A stretch of DNA of 55,986 nt from Prevotella sp. (lineage in GTDB: Bacteria; Bacteroidota; Bacteroidia; Bacteroidales; Bacteroidaceae): NCBI GenBank assembly GCA_017959365.1, contig JAGDAU010000109.1, positions 1 to 55,986 of the forward strand, written 5' to 3'. Positions 39,292-48,325 of this stretch are shown here, piece after piece. The notes beneath the pieces are model-generated. The model did no database searches. It was not told the DNA's origin and saw nothing but the letters and a program-made list of their open reading frames with translations. Position numbers and translations under genes: made by a program. The stretch's first letter is position 1. Each line of letters begins with the position of its first letter.

Positions 39292-40173
39292 TTATATAAT
39301 TTTCTCTTCTGGTTTAGTGTCGTGGGTTATCCATTGGTTGGCGCCTATCACAGTACCCTTGCCAATTGTTACCCTTCCTAATACCGTGGCATTACTGTAC
39401 ACGATAACGTTGTCCTCTAATATCGGGTGACGTGGTATGCCCTTGATGGGATTGCCATTGTCGTCAAGTGGGAAACTCTTAGCTCCGAGTGTTACACCTT
39501 GATATAGTTTCACATTATTGCCGATGATACAGGTAGCCCCGATAACCACACCCGTGCCATGGTCAATGGTGAAATACTCTCCTATAGTGGCAGCCGGGTG
39601 AATGTCTATACCTGTCTCATTATGTGCCAGTTCGGTTATCATACGTGGAATAAGAGGCACCTGAAGGATGTATAGCTCATGTGCTATACGATAGCATGTC
39701 AGCGCCTTAATGGCGGGGTAGCAGCATATTATCTCCTCATAGCTTGTTGCCGCGGGGTCGCCGTTGAAAGCAGCCTTTACGTCTGTTGTCAGAATACGTC
39801 TTATCTCTGGCAGTCTGGCTATGAGTTGTGTTGAGAGCAGGTCTGCTTTCTGTCTTATGTCATCGCAATCCTTAACGTTGTCATCGCATGAGGCGAAGCA
39901 CAGTCCGGCAAGTATCTCGTGAGACAGCAGTTTGTTGAGTCTCTCAATGCCAACTCCTATATGATACTGTATGGTTTGCTGCTTTATGGTTGATTTGCCA
40001 TAATATCCAGGAAACAGTATAGACCTTGCGATGTCTATAACTTCTTGCAATGATTTTCCAGACGGTATAGGCATGCCATCGATATGCTGGTGGAAAATTT
40101 CCCTTAAAGACTCTTTTCTACTTAATGTCTCAACGGTGTCATTGAGTATCTGAGCCTTGCTTTTGTCGTTCAT
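39292..40173 (-). CDS. cysE: Serine O-acetyltransferase
   Basis: GDPAA, YRIAH, TGIDIHPAATIG, IDHGTGVVIG, YQGVTLGA and RHP. Confidence 0.93.
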   Translation of the reverse strand: MNDKSKAQILNDTVETLSRKESLREIFHQHIDGMPIPSGKSLQEVIDIARSILFPGYYGKSTIKQQTIQYHIGVGIERLNKLLSHEILAGLCFASCDDNVKDCDDIRQKADLLSTQLIARLPEIRRILTTDVKAAFNGDPAATSYEEIICCYPAIKALTCYRIAHELYILQVPLIPRMITELAHNETGIDIHPAATIGEYFTIDHGTGVVIGATCIIGNNVKLYQGVTLGAKSFPLDDNGNPIKGIPRHPILEDNVIVYSNATVLGRVTIGKGTVIGANQWITHDTKPEEKII

Positions 40174-40234
40174 CTTTGTTGTGTCAATAAATAAAAAGGC
40201 AGGTCGTAAAATGACCTATTATCCAAAATCGTTG

Positions 40235-40265
40235 CAAAATTACGAATAATAGATAAAAATACAAA
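40235..40265 (-). promoter_or_regulatory. Primary sigma promoter for cysE, possibly driving the downstream minus-strand run
   Basis: TTTG-N19-TAATTTTG on the minus strand. Confidence 0.65.
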
Positions 40266-40343
40266 AAGAAAAGCGCTTTTTTTCTATTATAAATTTACTA
40301 ATTTATATAATAGGGTGAATTATGTGTATTTTTGTTAATGTTC

Positions 40344-40374
40344 TTTGGTATTAGGGATTTTATGCGTACCTTTG
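40344..40374 (+). promoter_or_regulatory. Primary sigma promoter for the inositol operon, TTTG-N19-TACCTTTG
   Basis: Exact consensus about 80 nt upstream of ATG 40456. Confidence 0.72.
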
Positions 40375-40455
40375 CACCGTTTTTTTAAAAACAATCCGCC
40401 ATCTCATCCGTTAATACAGATTTTGGTGGAGTGTTTGACAATCATAATTATACAG

Positions 40456-41244
40456 ATGAAATTTGCTATCATTGCGGCTGGTGACGGGTCGCGTTTAGAG
40501 CAAGAGGGAATAAGAGTACCCAAACCGCTCATAGAGGTGGGCCATGAACGGCTCATCGACCGCTTGATAAGGCTATATACTGATATGGGTGCGAGTGAGA
40601 TAGATGTGATATGTAATGATAAGACCATTCATGTGGGTTCACATCTGGCAAGAATCCAGAATCAGGGTCTGCATGGTCGTCCTGTTCCATTACGTTTCAT
40701 GATAAAAAGTACTCCAAGTTCGATGCATAGCCTACATGAGCTGCATAGGTATTTAGGCGACGAGCCGTTTATACTGTCCACTGTTGACACAATTTTCGAT
40801 GAGGATGATTTATGTCGTTATGTGGATGCTTTCCGTAATAGTAACGGAGAGTGTCTGATGGGAGTGACAAGATATGTTGACGATGAGAAACCTTTGTATG
40901 TGTCTGTGGGGGAGGGTATGCGTATTAATGGCTTTCTTGACAAGTCTGACTGCTGTGAGTATGTAAGTGCGGGCATCTATGGATTGCAGCCTCAGGTGTG
41001 GCAGGTCTTGGATGAGTGTGTGCGTCGTGGTGAGAGTAGAATGAGAAATTTCCAGCGTGCGTTGCTTTCTTCAGATGGCGTTGGATCACGTCTGCGTGCT
41101 TTTGCTTTTGGAAAGGTCTTTGATGTTGACCATAAGGAGGATATTTATAAGGCAGAAGCCTTTCTCTTGGGTAAAGATGAAATGGTGGATGATGACAGAT
41201 ATCATTTTGCCAAGGATGAATTGATGGAGAGTGATGATGAATGA
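40456..41244 (+). CDS. Nucleotidyltransferase (NTP_transferase), putative inositol-phosphate cytidylyltransferase
   Basis: MKFAIIAAGDGSRL...PKPL signature and C-terminal DVD...D. The substrate is inferred from gene context. Confidence 0.8.
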   Translation: MKFAIIAAGDGSRLEQEGIRVPKPLIEVGHERLIDRLIRLYTDMGASEIDVICNDKTIHVGSHLARIQNQGLHGRPVPLRFMIKSTPSSMHSLHELHRYLGDEPFILSTVDTIFDEDDLCRYVDAFRNSNGECLMGVTRYVDDEKPLYVSVGEGMRINGFLDKSDCCEYVSAGIYGLQPQVWQVLDECVRRGESRMRNFQRALLSSDGVGSRLRAFAFGKVFDVDHKEDIYKAEAFLLGKDEMVDDDRYHFAKDELMESDDE

Positions 41245-42100
41245 ATATAAGGCTCTAATTATACGCCGCGCCCCCAAATTCTCTCCTAATTCAGTAGAAA
41301 AGGATTGCGCCATCATAGAGGCTGTTGCCGATATTTTATCTTCTTCGGGAATAAGCGTAAGGATGACAGACGAAGACCTGCTGACAAGTGACGATATGGT
41401 AAATATCGACATGGTGCTTACGATGTGTCGCAGCAGGCGAGCCTTAGACATTCTTACCCCTTTTGAGGACAAGGTCGCCATGATTAATGTTCCATCCTCT
41501 ATAATGGCGTGTAACCGCAAAGATATCCGTAAGGTGATGAGACGCAACAATTTACCTTATCCTACCCCAGGCAAGATATACGGCAACAGTGCGGTATGGA
41601 TCAAGAGGGCTGACGGGCACACAATGGTAGAACACGATGTGGTGTTCTGTGAGAGCGGGGCGGACAAGACGGCTGCTGTCAGATATTTTAAATCCATTGG
41701 ATCTGAGTATATCACTCAAGCCCATGTGGAGGGAGACCTTGTGAAATTCTATGGTGTAGGGTCGGATTTCTTCCGGACTTTTTATCCAGGAGATGATGGT
41801 GACGTGAAATACACCAAAGACTTGTGCCAAGACAAGCCGCGACATTATGCATATGGGTCAGAGTCTTTACGGGAGGCTGCTGAGACCATTGCCCGTGAAA
41901 TCGGTATAGATGTCTGGGGCGGTGATGCTATCATAACACCAGATGGTGATTATTACATAATAGATTTCAACGACTGGCCCAGTTTCTCCCGCTGCCGTGA
42001 TGACGCTGCCAAGGCTATTGCCCAAAGAATCATATTGAGGATTACAGGAATGTATCTGTTACGGAACAAGGAAATTAAGGAAAGGAGTAATGGAAGATAA
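41231..42100 (+). CDS. ATP-grasp fold protein of unknown function
   Basis: INVPSSI, VWIKR, YITQAHVEGDLVKFYGV and GGDAII...YIIDFNDWPSF. Confidence 0.7.
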   Translation: MMMNEYKALIIRRAPKFSPNSVEKDCAIIEAVADILSSSGISVRMTDEDLLTSDDMVNIDMVLTMCRSRRALDILTPFEDKVAMINVPSSIMACNRKDIRKVMRRNNLPYPTPGKIYGNSAVWIKRADGHTMVEHDVVFCESGADKTAAVRYFKSIGSEYITQAHVEGDLVKFYGVGSDFFRTFYPGDDGDVKYTKDLCQDKPRHYAYGSESLREAAETIAREIGIDVWGGDAIITPDGDYYIIDFNDWPSFSRCRDDAAKAIAQRIILRITGMYLLRNKEIKERSNGR

Positions 42101-43040
42101 CCGCACATTTAAGGAATTGCTACAAGCCTCTTTTAAGTCGGAGGATACAGAGGAGTGGCTTGACGTATGGTTTACCCGTCCCATAGGTCTTGCCTTTGCC
42201 TTGCTGTGGCGTAGGCTTGGTGTGCATCCAAACACAATAACCATATTGTCTATATTCCTTGGTATGGGCGCTGGTGCTATGTTTTATTTCTCTGATTTCT
42301 GGCATAACCTGGCAGGTATCATTCTGTTGATGTTTGCCAATTTCTGCGACTCTACCGATGGACAGTTAGCCCGCTTGACGGGTCAGAAGACCATGATAGG
42401 CCGTATGCTTGACGGTTTTGCGGGTGATGTGTGGTTCTTTTGCATCTATCTTGCTATTTTGCTTCGCTTGTGGCACCAGCCGATACCGTTTACAGATGAT
42501 ATAGAGTGGGGTATAGGTGCTTTTGTGCTGTGTGCCGTGGCAAGTTTGCTGTGTCACTCGCCTCAGAGCTCCCTCGCCGACTATTACCGTCAGATCCATT
42601 TGTTCTTCCTCTCCGGTAAGGATGGTAGTGAGTTTAGTACCTGGAAACAGAACAAGGATTATTATGATAGTCTGCCAAAAGAAGCACGTCTTGATCGTGC
42701 TTTCTATTATAATTATTGCAACTACTGTAAGAGTCAGGAACGTAGGACTCCGGCATTTCAGCGTTTTATGTCGTTATGGACTACGGAGGCTATTGATAAT
42801 GAACAGCGGGAGCAGATCCGTCAGGAATTTCTTTACGGCCGTCGGCCGCTGATGAAATACACCAATATCCTGACATTTAATACCCGTGCTATCTGTCTGT
42901 ATGTCAGTTGTCTCGCTGATGTTCCATGGCTTTATCCCGTGATAGAGATAACAGTTTTTTCAGTGTTGTACGTTTATATGAAATATAGCCATGAGAGTCT
43001 TTCTGCATTGATGGCAAAAAAAATACAAGAAAAAAAATAA
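42090..43040 (+). CDS. CDP-alcohol phosphotransferase family protein
   Basis: HPNTIT and the full DxxDGxxAR...GxxxDxxxD signature (DSTDGQLAR...GRMLDGFAGD). Confidence 0.92.
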   Translation: MEDNRTFKELLQASFKSEDTEEWLDVWFTRPIGLAFALLWRRLGVHPNTITILSIFLGMGAGAMFYFSDFWHNLAGIILLMFANFCDSTDGQLARLTGQKTMIGRMLDGFAGDVWFFCIYLAILLRLWHQPIPFTDDIEWGIGAFVLCAVASLLCHSPQSSLADYYRQIHLFFLSGKDGSEFSTWKQNKDYYDSLPKEARLDRAFYYNYCNYCKSQERRTPAFQRFMSLWTTEAIDNEQREQIRQEFLYGRRPLMKYTNILTFNTRAICLYVSCLADVPWLYPVIEITVFSVLYVYMKYSHESLSALMAKKIQEKK

Positions 43041-43072
43041 TAAATTGATAGTATTTACGATATATAATAAAC

Positions 43073-43792
43073 ATGTGGAATAAAATAAAGGCCATAATAT
43101 TCGATTACGGCGGTACCATTGACACCGGAGGCGTGCATTGGAGCGTCGTCTTTTGGCGTGCCTATCAAGAGCATAGTGTACCAATCACGGAGGAAGACTT
43201 CCGTGAGGCATACGTGTTTACAGAGCGTACGCTGGGCAAGAATCCTATTATCCAGCCAAACTATACGTTCCGCAAGACATTGGAAATAAAGGTGCGTATT
43301 CAGACTGAATACCTTGTTTCTCAGGGTGTATGGAACTGCACCGATTTTGAGCGTCTGAGCCGTGTTGCCCAGATTGTCGAGACAGCCTACTCAACGGTTG
43401 TTGCAACTATTGCACGCATCCGTCCTGCTGTAGAGTCACTCTCCAAGCAGTTGCCTTTGGCTTTGGTGAGTAATTTCTACGGTAATATGAGTGTTGTGCT
43501 TGAGGAGTTCGGTCTCAGTGATCTCTTTACCACAGTAGTGGAATCAGCTGTGGTGGGTGTGCGTAAGCCGGATGCGCGGATTTTCCTTATTGCCTCAGAG
43601 CGATTAGGCGTACGTCCGGATGAGATACTTGTGGTAGGCGACAGTTATGATAAGGATATCTGCCCTGCCCGTAAGGCTGGCATGCATACGGCATGGCTGA
43701 GAGTGGAAGGCTGGATAAAGGCAGAACCGGATAGTCCAGAGTGTGACGTGATTATTGATGAAATAGATAATTTATTGAAAACAAATACTTGA
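43073..43792 (+). CDS. HAD family hydrolase (phosphatase)
   Basis: FDYGGTID motif I, VSNF, RKPD and VGDSYDKD. Confidence 0.9.
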   Translation: MWNKIKAIIFDYGGTIDTGGVHWSVVFWRAYQEHSVPITEEDFREAYVFTERTLGKNPIIQPNYTFRKTLEIKVRIQTEYLVSQGVWNCTDFERLSRVAQIVETAYSTVVATIARIRPAVESLSKQLPLALVSNFYGNMSVVLEEFGLSDLFTTVVESAVVGVRKPDARIFLIASERLGVRPDEILVVGDSYDKDICPARKAGMHTAWLRVEGWIKAEPDSPECDVIIDEIDNLLKTNT

Positions 43793-43826
43793 AGTGTAAT
43801 ATTAATTGAAAAATACACGTAAAATC

Positions 43827-45134
43827 ATGATAAATGAAAATGTAAAACCGGCAAACGGTAAATTAGGCATATTGGTGGTTGGTTGCGGAGCTGTAGCCAC
43901 CACATTCTTCACTGGCGTGATGATGGCGCGCAGAGGATTGGCAAAACCAGTCGGTTCCCTGACTCAGTATGATAAAATACGTATTGGAAAAGGGGACAAT
44001 AAGAAATATTCAGGTTATTATGACATAGTTCCCTTAGCAGAGCTTAAGGATTTAGAGTTTGGCACTTGGGATGTCTATCCTCAGGATGCCTTCCGTGCGG
44101 CTATGTATGCCAAGGTGCTGGAGGAAAAAGATATTTTACCAGTGAGAGAAGAGTTGGAGCGTATCGTTCCGATGCCCGCTGCCTTTGACAAGAATTATGC
44201 CAAGCGTATAGACGGCGACAATGTGATGGTTGGCAAGACGCGTTGGGAAATGGTGGAACAGTTGCGTGACGACATCCGTCGTTTCAAGCATGAGCATGGC
44301 TGTGACCGTATCGTTGTTGTCTGGGCTGCCTCAACAGAAATTTATCTTCCAATAGACAAGGATGTCCATTACTCCCTGTCAGCTCTCGAGGCAGCTATGA
44401 AAGCTGATGATCGTGAGCACATAGCACCATCCATGTGTTATGCATACGCGGCTCTTTCAGAAGGAGCCCCATTTGTCATGGGTGCGCCTAACACCACTGT
44501 TGACATACCGGCTATATGGGAGTTGGCAGAGAAAACCCGTATGCCAATAGCCGGCAAAGACTTTAAGAGTGGCCAGACCCTTGTCAAATCCGGTTTCGCA
44601 CCTATCATCGGCACTCGTTGCATGGGATTGTCTGGATGGTTCTCCACAAATATCCTCGGCAACAGAGACGGCATGGTATTGGATGAGCCGGATAATTTCC
44701 GTACCAAGGAGGTGAGCAAGCTTTCTACATTGGAGACAATACTTAAGTCCACAGACCAACCAGACCTCTATAAGGACTATTATCATAAGGTAAGGATTAA
44801 CTACTATCCTCCCCGTAATGACAATAAGGAGAGTTGGGATAATATTGACATTTTCGGCTGGATGGGTTATCCTATGCAGATAAAGATTAATTTCCTTTGT
44901 CGTGACTCTATACTTGCAGCGCCCTTACTTCTTGACCTTGCACTGCTCATTGACCTTGCCATGCGTGCCGGACGTTATGGAATACAACGTTTTCTGAGTT
45001 TCTATCTTAAGAGTCCGATGCATGACTATACTCAGGGTGAGGAGGCGGTCAACAATCTTTATCAACAATATACAATGTTAAAAAATGCCCTTCGTGAGAT
45101 GGGTGGATATGATGCAGATGAGGAAATCGATTAA
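43827..45134 (+). CDS. ino1: myo-Inositol-1-phosphate synthase (MIPS)
   Basis: GCGAVATT, WAASTE, GKDFKSGQT, STNILGNRDG, DNKESWD, CRDSILAAPL and FYLKSP. Confidence 0.95.
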   Translation: MINENVKPANGKLGILVVGCGAVATTFFTGVMMARRGLAKPVGSLTQYDKIRIGKGDNKKYSGYYDIVPLAELKDLEFGTWDVYPQDAFRAAMYAKVLEEKDILPVREELERIVPMPAAFDKNYAKRIDGDNVMVGKTRWEMVEQLRDDIRRFKHEHGCDRIVVVWAASTEIYLPIDKDVHYSLSALEAAMKADDREHIAPSMCYAYAALSEGAPFVMGAPNTTVDIPAIWELAEKTRMPIAGKDFKSGQTLVKSGFAPIIGTRCMGLSGWFSTNILGNRDGMVLDEPDNFRTKEVSKLSTLETILKSTDQPDLYKDYYHKVRINYYPPRNDNKESWDNIDIFGWMGYPMQIKINFLCRDSILAAPLLLDLALLIDLAMRAGRYGIQRFLSFYLKSPMHDYTQGEEAVNNLYQQYTMLKNALREMGGYDADEEID

Positions 45135-47721
45135 ATATCTGCTTACTTTGCTGTTGTGTGTGCTTACCCAAACAGTGTTAGCGCAGATTAACGGCAAGGT
45201 GGTGGATTCAGTTACCGGTGAGACAATACCATTCCCGTCATTGTTATATAAAGGACATGGTGTTGCGGTGGCAGGTGATGTTGACGGCAATTTTAAGATT
45301 GAGCGTCATAATGGTTGGTATCTCACTATTAAGTCTGTGGGATATCAAGACAGGCGTATACTCATTAACGAGAAGACATCGCGCAACATCACTGTGAAAC
45401 TCATACCAGATACACGTGCCCTTGACGAGGTTGTGGTAAAGGCAAAGCGCCGCACCCGTTATACTCGTAAGAACAACCCCGCCGTTGAGTTGATGCAGCG
45501 CGTTATAGCCGCCAAGAAGAAGACGGATTTGGAGAATTATCCTTTTTATCAGTTTAACAAGTATCAGAAGATAACTTTAGCCGTTAATGATATCAAGCCG
45601 GAGGATATGGAAAAAGGCTTGTTTAAGAATGCCCCTTGGCTTGTTAATCAGGTGGAGCAATGCGAGTTTACTCAGAAACTCATATTGCCTTTGTCTGTTG
45701 ATGAGACAGTTACCCAGCACTTATACCGTAAAGATCCCCGTACAGAAAAGGATGTTATTATGGGTCAGCAGTCAACAGGTGTCAATAAAGTGATACAGAC
45801 TGGTGAGACCGTAAACACCATGCTCAAGGAGATATTTACAGACATAGACATCTATGATGACCATGTGAAATTATTGCAGTATCATTTCCCAAGCCCTATA
45901 GGACGTACAGCGATATCATTCTACCGCTATTATATTCAGGATACAGTGTTTGTGGGTAATGACAAGTGTTACCATTTGCAGTTCCTGCCCAACAACCAGC
46001 AGGACTTCGGTTTCCGTGGTGAGTTGTACATCCTGTGTGACTCATCGCTGCATGTAAAGCGTTGTGATATGACAGTACCCCGCAGGAGTGGTGTTAACTT
46101 CGTTGATAATATCCGTATGCAGCAGGAGTACACTCGCCTTGACAATGGTGAGTGGGTGCTTACCGTTGACAATATGGTAGCGGAGATGCAAATAGCCAAT
46201 ATCTTCACCAAAGCCATTGTGATACGAAACACCAGATTGTCGGATTATGACTTCTCAGAGATATCTGACAAGAAATTCAGGGGTAAGGCAAAGAAGCGTA
46301 CCGAGGCAGATGCTCAAATACGCGATCAGGCATTCTGGGACCGTTATCGTACCATCGGCCTGACAAAGAGTGAGGAGAATATGGGTTCGTTTATCAAGAG
46401 CATGGAACAGTCGAAGAATTTCAAATGGATGCTGATTGCCGCTAAGGTGCTCATAGAGAATTTTGTGGAGACCCATCCGGATAAAGACAAGAGTAAGTTT
46501 GATATTGGACCCGTTAACACCTTTATATCTTATAATTTTGTGGACAAGTGGCGTTTCCGTCTGAGTGGCAGAACTACAGCCCGCCTTAATCCTCATCTCT
46601 TTTGGGATGGTTATTATGCCTACGGTACAAAGTCGAGGAAGCATTATTATGGTACCAACTTCACTTATTCGTTTAACAAGAAGAAAAACCAGCCGTTTGA
46701 ATACCCTCAGCGCACACTGTCTTTTGAGTCGTCATTTGATGTGATGTCGCCGTCAGATAAGTTTATTATCCATAATAAGGATAATGCTTTCATGGCATTT
46801 AAGACACAGAAGGTGGAGCAGATGTATTTCTACAACCGCCAGAAACTGGATTTTGTCTATGAGACGGATTGGGGATTCCGTTTACATTCCGACATAAAGC
46901 TGGAGAGTAATGATGCCACAGGTGATTTGGAGTTCCGCCACATGCCAGGCTATAAAGCCGCTGACCCATCAGACCCGGGTTATTCAGCTGACATGCCTGT
47001 AGGAGCCCTGGCTGGCAAGATACGCACCTCTGAGATTACGCTGGGAATGAAATACAGCCCCGGACAGACCTTTATCAACACCAAACAGCAGCGCATACCC
47101 ACCAACTACGATTCTCCGGAGTTTTCGTTGAGTCATACCATCGGTTTTGATGGATTGATGGGCGGACAATATAAGTACAACTTTACAGAGGCTGAAATAT
47201 ATAAGCGATTCTGGTTAGGCAGTTGGGGATATATCAACAGCCGTGTCAAGGCAGGCGCTCAATGGAATAAGGTGCCATTCCCATTGCTTATCATGCCACC
47301 TGTCAACCTGTCGTATTGGGAGCACGAGGAGACATTCTCACTGATGAACAATATGGAGTTCCTCAACGACCGTTATGTGTTCTGGAGTGCAGCATGGGAT
47401 ATGAATGGAAAACTTCTTAACCGTATTCCTCTTTTAAAGAAACTGAAGTGGAGGGAGTATTTTGCCGTTAAGGGCATGATAGGTAAGCTGACAGACAAAA
47501 ACAATCCATACCTGCCGGAGAATTACAATGATCCCATATTATTCCAATTTCCTGATAATGTGAATATTATGGATGCAGGAAAGCCTTATTGGGAGATTGT
47601 GGTCGGTGTGCATAATATCTTCAAGTTGTTTGAGGTTGACTATGTCCACCGTCTGAGTTACAACAACCTCTCGACAGCTTCCCGTAATGGTATCCGCTTT
47701 GGATTTAAAGTGTCATTCTGA
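45118..47721 (+). CDS. Outer-membrane protein with an N-terminal carboxypeptidase-regulatory-like domain and a DUF5686-type barrel
   Basis: Signal peptide, INGKVVDSVTGETIPF...SVGY...LDEVVV, NPAVELM, EFLNDRY and a terminal Phe. The start overlaps the MIPS 3' end. Confidence 0.8.
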   Translation: MRKSIKYLLTLLLCVLTQTVLAQINGKVVDSVTGETIPFPSLLYKGHGVAVAGDVDGNFKIERHNGWYLTIKSVGYQDRRILINEKTSRNITVKLIPDTRALDEVVVKAKRRTRYTRKNNPAVELMQRVIAAKKKTDLENYPFYQFNKYQKITLAVNDIKPEDMEKGLFKNAPWLVNQVEQCEFTQKLILPLSVDETVTQHLYRKDPRTEKDVIMGQQSTGVNKVIQTGETVNTMLKEIFTDIDIYDDHVKLLQYHFPSPIGRTAISFYRYYIQDTVFVGNDKCYHLQFLPNNQQDFGFRGELYILCDSSLHVKRCDMTVPRRSGVNFVDNIRMQQEYTRLDNGEWVLTVDNMVAEMQIANIFTKAIVIRNTRLSDYDFSEISDKKFRGKAKKRTEADAQIRDQAFWDRYRTIGLTKSEENMGSFIKSMEQSKNFKWMLIAAKVLIENFVETHPDKDKSKFDIGPVNTFISYNFVDKWRFRLSGRTTARLNPHLFWDGYYAYGTKSRKHYYGTNFTYSFNKKKNQPFEYPQRTLSFESSFDVMSPSDKFIIHNKDNAFMAFKTQKVEQMYFYNRQKLDFVYETDWGFRLHSDIKLESNDATGDLEFRHMPGYKAADPSDPGYSADMPVGALAGKIRTSEITLGMKYSPGQTFINTKQQRIPTNYDSPEFSLSHTIGFDGLMGGQYKYNFTEAEIYKRFWLGSWGYINSRVKAGAQWNKVPFPLLIMPPVNLSYWEHEETFSLMNNMEFLNDRYVFWSAAWDMNGKLLNRIPLLKKLKWREYFAVKGMIGKLTDKNNPYLPENYNDPILFQFPDNVNIMDAGKPYWEIVVGVHNIFKLFEVDYVHRLSYNNLSTASRNGIRFGFKVSF

Positions 47722-47756
47722 TGCTATCTGTATGATTCATAAGATAGTCACAGGGC

Positions 47757-48170
47757 TTAATTTTCCGGTGTGAATGTCATCTTTGACGGTAGTTTGACCC
47801 ATTTCTTGTTGACTGCTATTTTGATGGTGCTTCCTTTCTCCTGACGCAGGGTATAGGTACCGTCGTTCTCAGCTGTTAGGGTTGCCGTAAGGTCTTCACT
47901 GCCATAATCATTGGTTATGGTGAGTGTTGCAATGTTGCCGTTAATCTCGGCGTTGGTGATAATCCATACCCTTCCGTCTTTTCTGTAATACAGGTATCCT
48001 CCCACTTCTCCGAATAGTTCCTGTCCGGGTATTATGAGATTGTTATACAGGTCTATTTTCATTACCACGTCGTGCTCTTTGTTGACGATTGTCTTACGGA
48101 ACGGCTCATCAGCCAGTACGTTGCCAATGAAACATATAATCAGTGTGATTAAACAAATTGTTTTCTTCAT
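47757..48170 (-). CDS. Exported hypothetical protein
   Basis: Signal peptide, PGQELFG and NDYGSEDL motifs; 137 aa. Confidence 0.7.
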   Translation of the reverse strand: MKKTICLITLIICFIGNVLADEPFRKTIVNKEHDVVMKIDLYNNLIIPGQELFGEVGGYLYYRKDGRVWIITNAEINGNIATLTITNDYGSEDLTATLTAENDGTYTLRQEKGSTIKIAVNKKWVKLPSKMTFTPEN

Positions 48171-48325
48171 AATTAATGTGTTCTTAAAAGAAAAGAAAAA
48201 TACAATGATTTGACAAAGTTACTATTTTAAATCATTAAATTGACGTTTCATTCAAAAAAAAGTAACACAAAATTATGTTTTTTTAATTATTATGGTTAAT
48301 TTTGCGCATCATTTTAGGTATTAAC

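Follow-up and report, generated by a model that had tools for sequence, protein, structure and literature searches.

The question raised by this locus is what a run of closely packed genes, among them one for an ATP-grasp protein and one for a myo-inositol-phosphate synthase (MIPS), is built to make, and which of its products phosphorylates inositol. Inositol sphingolipids influence the fitness of Bacteroides and its resistance to antimicrobial peptides (Heaver et al., 2022; PMC9246714), and the alternative route to inositol lipids, which is common in Prevotella, has yet to be reconstituted. The assignment of the ATP-grasp protein (gene 2) bears on what completes this alternative pathway and on how Tannerella forsythia phosphorylates the inositol that it scavenges. 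As argued below, gene 2 is likely the missing inositol-phosphorylating enzyme of the alternative inositol lipid cluster.

The operon and its transcription unit

The window, that is, the whole stretch of Prevotella sp. DNA analysed (55,986 nucleotides), holds the following features:

40344..40374, + strand: Bacteroidetes-type promoter (-33 TTTG at 40344, 19-nt spacer, -7 TACCTTTG at 40367)
40456..41244, + strand: gene 1, NTP transferase (nucleotidyltransferase; PF12804 and PF00483 over cut-off), predicted CTP:inositol-phosphate cytidylyltransferase
41237..42100, + strand: gene 2, ATP-grasp protein with an ITPK-type G-x-D...I-D-x-N-x-x-P motif, predicted inositol (phosphate) kinase
42090..43040, + strand: gene 3, membrane CDP-alcohol phosphotransferase (CDP-AP; PF01066), predicted CDP-inositol:dihydroceramide inositolphosphotransferase
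43073..43792, + strand: gene 4, soluble HAD-family phosphatase (PF00702, PF13419; motif I DYGGTID)
43827..45134, + strand: gene 5, myo-inositol-phosphate synthase, MIPS/Ino1 (PF07994, PF01658)
45109..47721, + strand: DUF5686 + CarboxypepD_reg protein (Pfam), overlapping the MIPS stop, probably co-transcribed

The preliminary description of this DNA listed five overlapping or closely spaced genes behind one promoter. All five ORFs are indeed found on the + strand; overlaps of 8 nt (genes 1 and 2) and 11 nt (genes 2 and 3) are followed by gaps of 32 nt (genes 3 and 4) and 34 nt (genes 4 and 5), and alternative starts exist for gene 2 (GTG 41231, ATG 41234) and MIPS (TTG 43806). The promoter was identified with the Bacteroidetes-type consensus; a sigma-70 scan is ill-suited to the phylum Bacteroidota. 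TTTG-19 nt-TACCTTTG is the sole full match on the + strand between 40001 and 48300, and when the intergenic sequence was shuffled 5000 times, a full match arose in 48 cases. The size of the unit has to be revised, since the DUF5686 gene overlaps the MIPS stop and the scan lists no terminator-like site between the MIPS end and the start of that gene, so that the transcription unit probably comprises six genes. A DUF5686-type gene occurs in 67 of 153 related loci, and this protein type is the "BT_1527 homologue" of the alternative cluster of Heaver et al. (2022).

Genes 1, 3, 4 and 5 all exceed their Pfam cut-offs. The NTP transferase has the invariant residues R13, K23 and D111 and matches the profiles of RmlA, HddC, T. 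maritima 4jd0, LicC and A. fulgidus IPCT; the best of these are sugar-1-phosphate enzymes, and the substrate assignment therefore rests on context. In the CDP-AP, which scores over the PF01066 cut-off and has the first three motif Asp, the motif reads D87-x2-D90-G-x2-A-R...G104-x3-D108 and is followed by an Asp at +5; this position of the fourth catalytic Asp is shared by 120 of 153 sequences, and the canonical +4 is found in 2. The protein is most similar to enzymes whose donor is a CDP-polar head group: by fold, DIPPS comes first (Z 16.2, against 14.0 for PIPS), and AF2299, CEPT1 and CPT1 rank ahead of PIPS in profile searches. Its score with the model of the BT_1523-type PIP synthase (NF052561) is 17.1 bits against a cut-off of 350. 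The HAD protein carries the four HAD motifs, lacks a hydrophobic segment and is similar to soluble nucleotidases and to phosphatases of sugar phosphates; it is predicted to be a soluble phosphatase, not a ceramide synthase. MIPS matches PDB 7nwr with an E of 1.6e-179, and enzymes of its family convert glucose-6-phosphate to inositol-3-phosphate.

In short, this Prevotella sp. is a gut/oral-type bacterium with an intact copy of the cluster proposed in 2022, an assignment made from gene content and from cluster relatives in named Prevotella genomes rather than from BVU_RS13095/13105/13115 themselves. A serine palmitoyltransferase-like gene is present in the source genome, and an LPG-synthase-like gene lies on another contig; neither tblastn nor the NF052609 model found BT_1522/23/25-like genes in this assembly, which is 77% complete.

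The ATP-grasp protein, kinase or ligase

The protein encoded by gene 2 has zero matches in Pfam and NCBIfam. Its AlphaFold model (pLDDT 93.6) has an ATP-grasp fold, and the label given to it earlier therefore holds. RimK (Z 19.8), ITPK1 (2qb5; Z 19.1, rmsd 3.2, 252 aligned, ~14% identity) and ArgX (Z 19.0) are tied as fold matches, and Foldseek ranks Ddl first, so that searches with the model settle the fold and fail to rank kinase against ligase.

More is learned from profiles. Searched against 177,635 PDB sequences, the gene-2 profile gave seven matches with E<0.003, six of which are ITPK chains; these represent three different proteins (Arabidopsis ITPK4, Entamoeba ITPK, human ITPK1) and align with gene 2 at the G-x-D...I-D-x-N-x-x-P motif. 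LysX and GshB were at E>=0.4, and a narrower profile had a similar outcome. With the single sequence, ITPK4 alone was found (E 0.12). Among the named Atlas clusters for a gene-2 homologue, the Asgard ITPK cluster comes fifth, and RimK-like clusters score as high. The ITPK1 family model PF05770 (cut-off 23 bits) has no match to the operon's gene 2 protein; three of 82 gene-2 family members match it weakly (best E 0.046), it exceeds the cut-off in 0 of 301 genomes of the phylum, and the source genome is without any match.

The conserved residues, numbered from 41240 and compared across 529 sequences, include the metal site D229, D242 and N244 as well as K122, K169 and D245 (all ~100%), and D22 and D133 (99%). 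The metal motif is thus D242-x-N244 in ~100% of the family, not the E-x-N of RimK and other ligases; D-x-N-P also occurs in CDC123. R10, R64 and K169 are conserved and may correspond to the basic pocket of human ITPK1 (K18, K59, H167, K199, R212), and the pocket has three conserved Asp beyond the metal ligands.

An alternative is that gene 2 encodes an ATP-grasp ligase of the RimK type, which would attach an amino acid or an acyl group either to the head group or to some protein, while another enzyme phosphorylates inositol. The tie with RimK and ArgX, the ligase PsnB as the top PDB match of the profile, and the database labels of homologues ('glutathione synthase/RimK-type') speak for this, as does the presence in related operons of an aminotransferase that could provide the amine. 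PsnB, however, carries E-x-N in the profile alignment where gene 2 has D-x-N-D-x-P, the lipid head group of T. forsythia is plain 1-phospho-myo-inositol by NMR, and the Prevotella sp. operon has no amine-making gene, all of which makes a ligase improbable. An aminotransferase gene is a feature of related operons, not of the source genome's. Gene 2 is probably an inositol or inositol-phosphate kinase; its family comprises 1,490 clusters at 50% identity, and no published function for it was found in the literature searched (subscription journals mostly outside reach).

The preliminary description left the ATP-grasp protein without a role in the operon. The counts across loci and genomes place it at the core and make MIPS optional. 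Gene 2 is never alone: among 153 loci with enough flank, the NTP transferase accompanies it in 139, the CDP-AP in 139, the HAD in 146 and MIPS in 63. Natural fusions of gene 2 are known with each of the first three partners (among 18 long homologues, NTP transferase 9, HAD 3, CDP-AP 2). A locus with no more than the NTP transferase and ATP-grasp genes turned out, in the single complete genome inspected (G673), to be part of an operon that is split. Genomes that have the ATP-grasp gene but lack MIPS number 22 of 81 in one family (f131) and 7 of 151 in the source genome's family. The ATP-grasp protein is probably an obligatory enzyme of the pathway; MIPS is dispensable.

The HAD was considered as a gene lost together with MIPS, and this was rejected: it is kept in 29/29 MIPS-less ATP-grasp genomes and in 46/46 of the ATP-grasp genomes tested; at locus L064 an ATG-only ORF scan misses it. 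The B. thetaiotaomicron (BT)-type PIP synthase is present in 3 of these 46, all three MIPS-less, and in 32 of the 34 genomes that have MIPS but lack the ATP-grasp gene. These counts come from genomes that are kin rather than independent. Only 2 of the 34 have the HAD, and both copies are degenerate, with family-invariant residues lost; a role as PgpA substitute in BT-type clusters was rejected, both genomes having PgpA. The ATP-grasp cluster and the BT-type route are nearly mutually exclusive.

The proposed route and its acceptor

Taken together, the gene content, folds, motifs, fusions and phyletic pattern observed here very probably reflect an inositol-lipid head-group pathway that runs through CDP-inositol. 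This part of the preliminary description was supported, and it matches the proposal of Heaver et al. (2022). The alternative that the preliminary description left open, a di-inositol-phosphate-type solute, is disfavoured because the cluster and the B. thetaiotaomicron lipid route replace each other genome by genome. Formation of such a solute from CDP-inositol and inositol phosphate, with the HAD taking the last phosphate, would give each of the four core genes a part; by fold the CDP-AP matches DIPPS best, and the labelling of T. forsythia covered the organic phase only (Megson et al., 2015; PMC4587543). Nonetheless, it would leave PI-dihydroceramide producers that lack BT-type genes without a synthase, and genes 1 and 3 score 37.4 and 23.4 bits with the IPCT/DIPPS model NF041135 (cut-off 580), each taken alone against a fused-protein model; we regard it as very unlikely.

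For the acceptor, left open before between DAG and dihydroceramide, published work on other species supplies what is known of lipid products and of the use made of outside inositol. By analogy, dihydroceramide is the likely acceptor, because B. vulgatus has Cer-PI and no diacyl PI (Ryan et al., 2023), and because inositol label in T. forsythia was reported in dihydroceramide lipids only and in no glycerolipid (Megson et al., 2015). Also counted in favour of this acceptor are the likeness of the CDP-AP to enzymes with a CDP-polar head group as donor, the serine palmitoyltransferase-like gene of the source genome, and the fact that tblastn found no BT_1522/23/25-like genes in that 77% complete assembly.

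The following scheme is proposed, in which all enzyme activities, the position on the ring and the lipid that receives the head group are inferred. Myo-inositol would be phosphorylated by the ATP-grasp protein, the NTP transferase would turn phosphorylated inositol into CDP-inositol, and the membrane CDP-AP would move inositol-phosphate straight onto dihydroceramide, a direct transfer that we consider reasonably probable. MIPS would be an optional source of inositol-3-phosphate, imported inositol feeding the kinase where MIPS is missing. More tentatively, the soluble HAD may strip off the 3-phosphate that stems from MIPS, acting either on Ins3P or on Ins(1,3)P2 as an intermediate; together, kinase and phosphatase would thereby shift the phosphate to the position of the lipid linkage, presumably 1D-1; mere clearing of the MIPS product would leave its retention in all MIPS-less genomes unexplained. 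That the operon builds inositol-phosphoryl-dihydroceramide by this Kennedy-type route as a whole (kinase, CDP-inositol, direct transfer) is about an even call.

In the scheme published by Heaver et al. (2022), the MIPS product would instead pass through CDP-inositol to PI-DAG, the HAD would move the head group to dihydroceramide, and the ATP-grasp protein could at most be a salvage kinase making the same isomer as MIPS. In keeping with it, CDP-AP+HAD fusions exist (3 of 80 loci), the DAG users CPT1 and CEPT1 are among the best profile matches of the CDP-AP, and the three MIPS-less genomes with both ATP-grasp and a BT-type PIP synthase fit an Ins3P-making salvage kinase. It agrees poorly with a HAD without a hydrophobic segment and with the absence of diacyl PI and of labelled glycerolipid in the species cited above; moreover, a salvage enzyme should often be lost where MIPS is present, whereas nearly all genomes with MIPS and no ATP-grasp gene use the BT route. 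This scheme is unlikely. Less likely still is a variant with the same kinase and direct transfer in which the extra phosphate is retained as far as the lipid: the ATP-grasp protein would make an inositol bisphosphate, PIP-dihydroceramide would be formed, and the HAD would dephosphorylate it at the membrane, as BT_1525 does in B. thetaiotaomicron. That would account for the HAD in every ATP-grasp genome regardless of MIPS and for its fusions in relatives to membrane proteins (CDP-AP, LPG-synthase-like), and ITPK1 does work on InsP1 (PMC6900528); yet the parts of Megson et al. (2015) covered report no phosphorylated inositol lipid in T. forsythia, and the three extra Asp set the gene 2 pocket apart from the basic one described for ITPKs.

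The gum pathogen T. forsythia makes its PI-dihydroceramide solely from exogenous inositol, these lipids amounting to roughly one quarter of the lipid in its membranes, and no candidate for a kinase or an IPCT was reported in the sections covered (Megson et al., 2015; PMC4587543). A locus with the order NTP transferase-ATP-grasp-CDP-AP-HAD (L175), three proteins of which carry a T. forsythia label in their sources, lies in a genome in which no MIPS, BT_1522-type synthase, BT_1523-type PIP synthase or IMPase family was found; six PfkB-family proteins are present, and the kinase acting on inositol could be one of these instead. A gene-2 kinase would explain the route from outside inositol to sphingolipids in this species. 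If true, it predicts which species of gut and mouth are able to build inositol lipids from host or dietary inositol, and ITPK-type kinase chemistry, so far known from eukaryotes and Asgard archaea, would reach bacteria. In its fullest form the idea is a possibility that we put somewhat below even: gene 2 would found a large bacterial family of ITPK-like ATP-grasp kinases acting on free myo-inositol, sister to the eukaryotic/Asgard ITPK1 lineage, with a HAD relay that sets 1D-1 and direct transfer from CDP-inositol to dihydroceramide, and it would supply the kinase missing in T. forsythia since 2015.

Comparison with known systems

The cluster of this type mentioned in the preliminary description is the 'alternative inositol lipid cluster' proposed for Phocaeicola (Bacteroides) vulgatus and Prevotella (Heaver et al., 2022; PMC9246714), and, as had been stated, no full reconstitution was found in the literature searched (subscription journals mostly outside reach). 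The two share the NTP transferase, CDP-AP and HAD beside MIPS and a carboxypeptidase-regulatory-domain gene. They differ in that the paper has MIPS as the entry point and the HAD as ceramide synthase, whereas here the ATP-grasp protein is core, MIPS optional and the HAD soluble; a term search of the main text and eight supplement files, figures not covered, gave 0 mentions of ATP-grasp.

BT_1522-1526 of B. thetaiotaomicron share the MIPS type and the reported end product, PI-dihydroceramide, but work through CDP-DAG, with PIP as intermediate, and employ PgpA together with an AUR1-like synthase; that route makes scarcely any use of outside inositol. IPCT/BEPIS of Rhodothermus marinus (PMC4587543, PMC10191378) and IPCT/DIPPS of hyperthermophiles resemble the operon in their CDP-inositol donor and in the pairing of cytidylyltransferase and CDP-alcohol phosphotransferase; they differ in using the MIPS product directly and in their acceptors, dialkylether glycerol or inositol phosphate.

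The ITPK1 family (PF05770; human ITPK1, Arabidopsis ITPK4, Entamoeba ITPK, Lokiarchaeum LcIKA-D) has in common with gene 2 the ATP-grasp fold, the D...D-x-N motif and the linkage to MIPS, Lokiarchaeum ITPKs adjoining MIPS genes (Desfougeres et al., 2019; PMC6900528). HAD-kinase fusions are found both in ITPK4 and in gene-2 relatives, in opposite domain order. ITPK1 phosphorylates Ins3P, the substrate in the section covered being InsP1 and not free inositol (PMC6900528). Gene 2, in contrast, is only ~14% identical to ITPK1, falls under the Pfam cut-off and has an extra invariant Asp after the Asn; it is predicted to supply a lipid head group rather than InsP6, and it may use free inositol.

Operon layout and host genome

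The five genes that the preliminary description had called overlapping or closely spaced do lie together on the forward strand; the first two junctions are overlaps (8 and 11 nt), and the next two are spaced by 32 and 34 nt. Pfam agrees with the labels that the description had given to genes 1, 3, 4 and 5 (nucleotidyltransferase, CDP-alcohol phosphotransferase, HAD hydrolase and MIPS, respectively). The single promoter that it had claimed is likewise borne out, since only one full Bacteroidetes-type match occurs on this strand within 40001-48300:

40344-40374, + strand, putative Bacteroidetes-type promoter (consensus match)

A full match to the consensus arises in about 1% of shuffled sequences. 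The DUF5686 gene, which overlaps the MIPS stop codon, is probably part of the same unit. A second full match (40235-40265, - strand) stands back to back with the operon promoter and faces a divergent cysE-like gene (39292-40173).

The host genome (77% complete) contains a serine palmitoyltransferase-like gene, whose partial match scores 597 bits against a cut-off of 640, and tblastn found no genes like BT_1522, BT_1523 or BT_1525 of B. thetaiotaomicron in this 77% of the genome. An LPG-synthase-like gene lies behind a pdxA-like gene on a different contig from the operon (G000:C147:14835-15869); in 44 of 153 related loci such a gene is found within the operon. A separate cluster with a PLP enzyme and a nucleotidyltransferase (G000:C154:26000-30600), one gene of which we presume to resemble LicD, is probably another CDP-head-group system.

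Gene 2: fold, motif and genomic company

Gene 2 has no match in Pfam or NCBIfam, its nearest named relatives come mostly from Prevotella-group genomes (35-46% identity), and its family amounts to 1,490 clusters at 50% identity. The ATP-grasp label of the preliminary description is supported by the predicted fold (model built from an 82-sequence alignment; pLDDT 93.6). Comparison of this predicted model with known folds ended in a tie between RimK (Z 19.8), human ITPK1 (19.1) and ArgX (19.0), and Foldseek ranked Ddl first and human ITPK1 second. When a profile made from 60 sequences was searched against the PDB, seven sequences were found at E<0.003: the ligase PsnB at the top, and six that represent three ITPK proteins. 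The ITPK matches align across the motif G-x-D...I-D-x-N-x-x-P, where PsnB has E-x-N. Residues D229, D242, N244, D245, P247, K122 and K169 (counted from 41240; counting from the Met at 41237 adds one) are essentially invariant across 529 family sequences, and the window's protein retains them all. For one homologue, an Asgard ITPK cluster came fifth among the named Atlas clusters and tied with RimK-like ones, and the family does not reach the PF05770 cut-off. The D-x-N alignment and the invariant residues, set against the tied fold and the cut-off, make gene 2 look ITPK-like at its catalytic motif but not a formal member of that family. Its predicted activity is that of a probable inositol kinase. 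According to the available text of Desfougeres 2019 (PMC6900528), ITPK1 phosphorylates Ins1P and Ins3P, and the MIPS genes of Lokiarchaeum are flanked by ITPKs.

Gene 2 belongs to the core of the pathway. The survey covered 170 loci, 153 of them with enough flank, and in none of the 153 does gene 2 stand alone; the NTP transferase, CDP-alcohol phosphotransferase and HAD genes all accompany it in 130, and MIPS in 63. It lies directly behind the NTP transferase gene, or is fused to it, in 134 of the 163 loci with upstream flank. Of 18 long homologues, nine are fused to the NTP transferase, three to HAD, two to the CDP-alcohol phosphotransferase and one to a histidine kinase, while three gave no Pfam match; a further 12 are fused to the NTP transferase (four), CDP-alcohol phosphotransferase (five) or a histidine kinase (three). 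P0134, P0426 and P0427 are putative fusions of PAS/histidine-kinase proteins to a complete gene-2 domain (691 aa).

Several relatives carry additional genes. At four loci (L033, L034, L051 and L132) the BT-type genes for PgpA, a GtrA-like protein, PIP synthase and PI-dihydroceramide (PI-DHC) synthase are inserted within the operon, directly after the ATP-grasp gene, an arrangement that probably captures the exchange of one route for the other in progress. Directly upstream of the operon at L061 (1033-3705) and L062 lie a second CDP-alcohol phosphotransferase and a second NTP transferase, together with a PLP enzyme; these are candidates for a route via CDP-ethanolamine to an ethanolamine sphingolipid. 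Operons from other classes of the phylum (L215-L227, e.g., L215:933-11344; close homologues are labelled Ignavibacteria) gain MlaE/F/D, a class-III aminotransferase, a Gfo/Idh/MocA dehydrogenase and an LPG-synthase-like gene, additions that suggest an amino-inositol head group; two of these genomes have tandem ATP-grasp copies. Finally, a paralogue of the same CDP-alcohol phosphotransferase family lies with a TagD-like cytidylyltransferase and a short-chain dehydrogenase (L229:5674-7838), a candidate for phosphoglycerol-dihydroceramide synthesis; Table S5 of Heaver 2022 (PMC9246714) lists a CDP-alcohol phosphotransferase homologue in P. gingivalis at E 2e-68.

Across 301 genomes of the order, gene 2 occurs in 37 and MIPS in 45, and 36 of the 37 gene-2 carriers have both. 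Of the 151 genomes in the window's family, both genes are present in 95, only the ATP-grasp gene in 7, only MIPS in 21 and neither in 28; the corresponding figures for a second family (81 genomes) are 35, 22, 13 and 11. A follow-up search took in 80 genomes: all 34 with MIPS only, all 29 with the ATP-grasp gene only, and 17 hand-picked from the 130 with both. The BT-type PIP synthase was found in 32/34, 3/29 and 0/17 of these, respectively, and the operon HAD in 2/34, 29/29 and 17/17, counts that are patterns rather than statistics, given the kinship among the genomes and the incompleteness of some. Both orphan HADs of MIPS-only genomes have changes at family-invariant residues, and PgpA is present in their genomes. 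The pattern is that the cluster takes the place of the BT lipid route, that no intact copy was seen to lack gene 2, not even where MIPS is present, and that the cluster does not need MIPS.

Probable lipid acceptor and proposed roles of HAD and the kinase

In the available text of Heaver 2022 (PMC9246714), the cluster is a putative, unconfirmed alternative route, in which CDP-inositol leads to PI-DAG and then to PI-DHC, the last step by HAD. The model of the CDP-alcohol phosphotransferase (pLDDT 94.8) has DIPPS as its best fold match (Z 16.2, rmsd 2.7, 189 aligned; mycobacterial PIPS, Z 14.0), and AF2299 ranked first both by Foldseek and by profile search, which fits a CDP-head-group as the donor. 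The fourth catalytic Asp is displaced to +5 in 120 of 153 sequences. As regards the acceptor, direct transfer of the head group to dihydroceramide would be more economical than a PI-DAG intermediate, given that B. vulgatus, in the available text of Ryan 2023 (PMC10056535), has Cer-PI without diacyl PI, and that T. forsythia, in that of Megson 2015 (PMC4587543), has dihydroceramide lipids only.

The HAD has all four motifs and no hydrophobic segment, and it is similar to soluble nucleotidases and sugar-phosphate phosphatases; it is therefore unlikely to act as a ceramide synthase. Its retention without MIPS suggests that it does more than clear Ins3P; its substrate assignment is the weakest link.

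The NTP transferase retains R13, K23 and D111, which correspond by motif position to the residues that PMC12275187, in its available text, names for T. maritima IPCT. Its profile ranked sugar-1-phosphate enzymes first. The product of MIPS is 1D-Ins3P, and its direct cytidylylation would give a lipid linked via the mirror-image position relative to ordinary PI. A kinase beside MIPS would make sense for this reason, as kinase and phosphatase together could shift the inositol phosphate to 1D-1; the kinase would also let free inositol enter the pathway.

Tannerella forsythia and the published cluster

As far as the available text of Megson 2015 (PMC4587543) goes, T. forsythia lacks MIPS and IMPase, and makes two 1-phospho-myo-inositol dihydroceramides with inositol taken solely from outside; no other lipid becomes labelled, and neither an inositol kinase nor an IPCT can be recognised. 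Locus L175, whose ATP-grasp, CDP-alcohol phosphotransferase and HAD proteins are labelled T. forsythia in the source databases, has the four core genes in the same order as the window, and no MIPS, IMPase-family, BT_1522-type or BT_1523-type gene was found in its genome (99% complete). The two steps that were missing could thus both be supplied by this four-gene core, gene 2 being the candidate kinase. The genome also encodes six proteins of the PfkB family, which includes known free-inositol kinases, and the assignment thus falls short of proof. B. thetaiotaomicron has only weak matches to the cluster and, in the available text of Heaver 2022 (PMC9246714), barely uses outside inositol.

By MS, the same study confirmed that B. 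vulgatus and P. veroralis contain PI-DHC, and its Table S5 lists many Prevotella with the NTP transferase, CDP-alcohol phosphotransferase and HAD but without MIPS, an independent sign that the cluster occurs without it. The term "ATP-grasp" is absent from its main text and supplement files as available, and BVU_RS13100 from the latter. A 2023 review (PMC10191378) still terms the route predicted in its available text, and our literature search, mostly outside subscription journals, found no publication that reconstitutes the cluster or assigns gene 2. The operon is a real, intact copy of this published but putative cluster, to which the present analysis adds the probable role of gene 2 as an inositol kinase, the link to T. 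forsythia and arguments that the head group goes directly to dihydroceramide.
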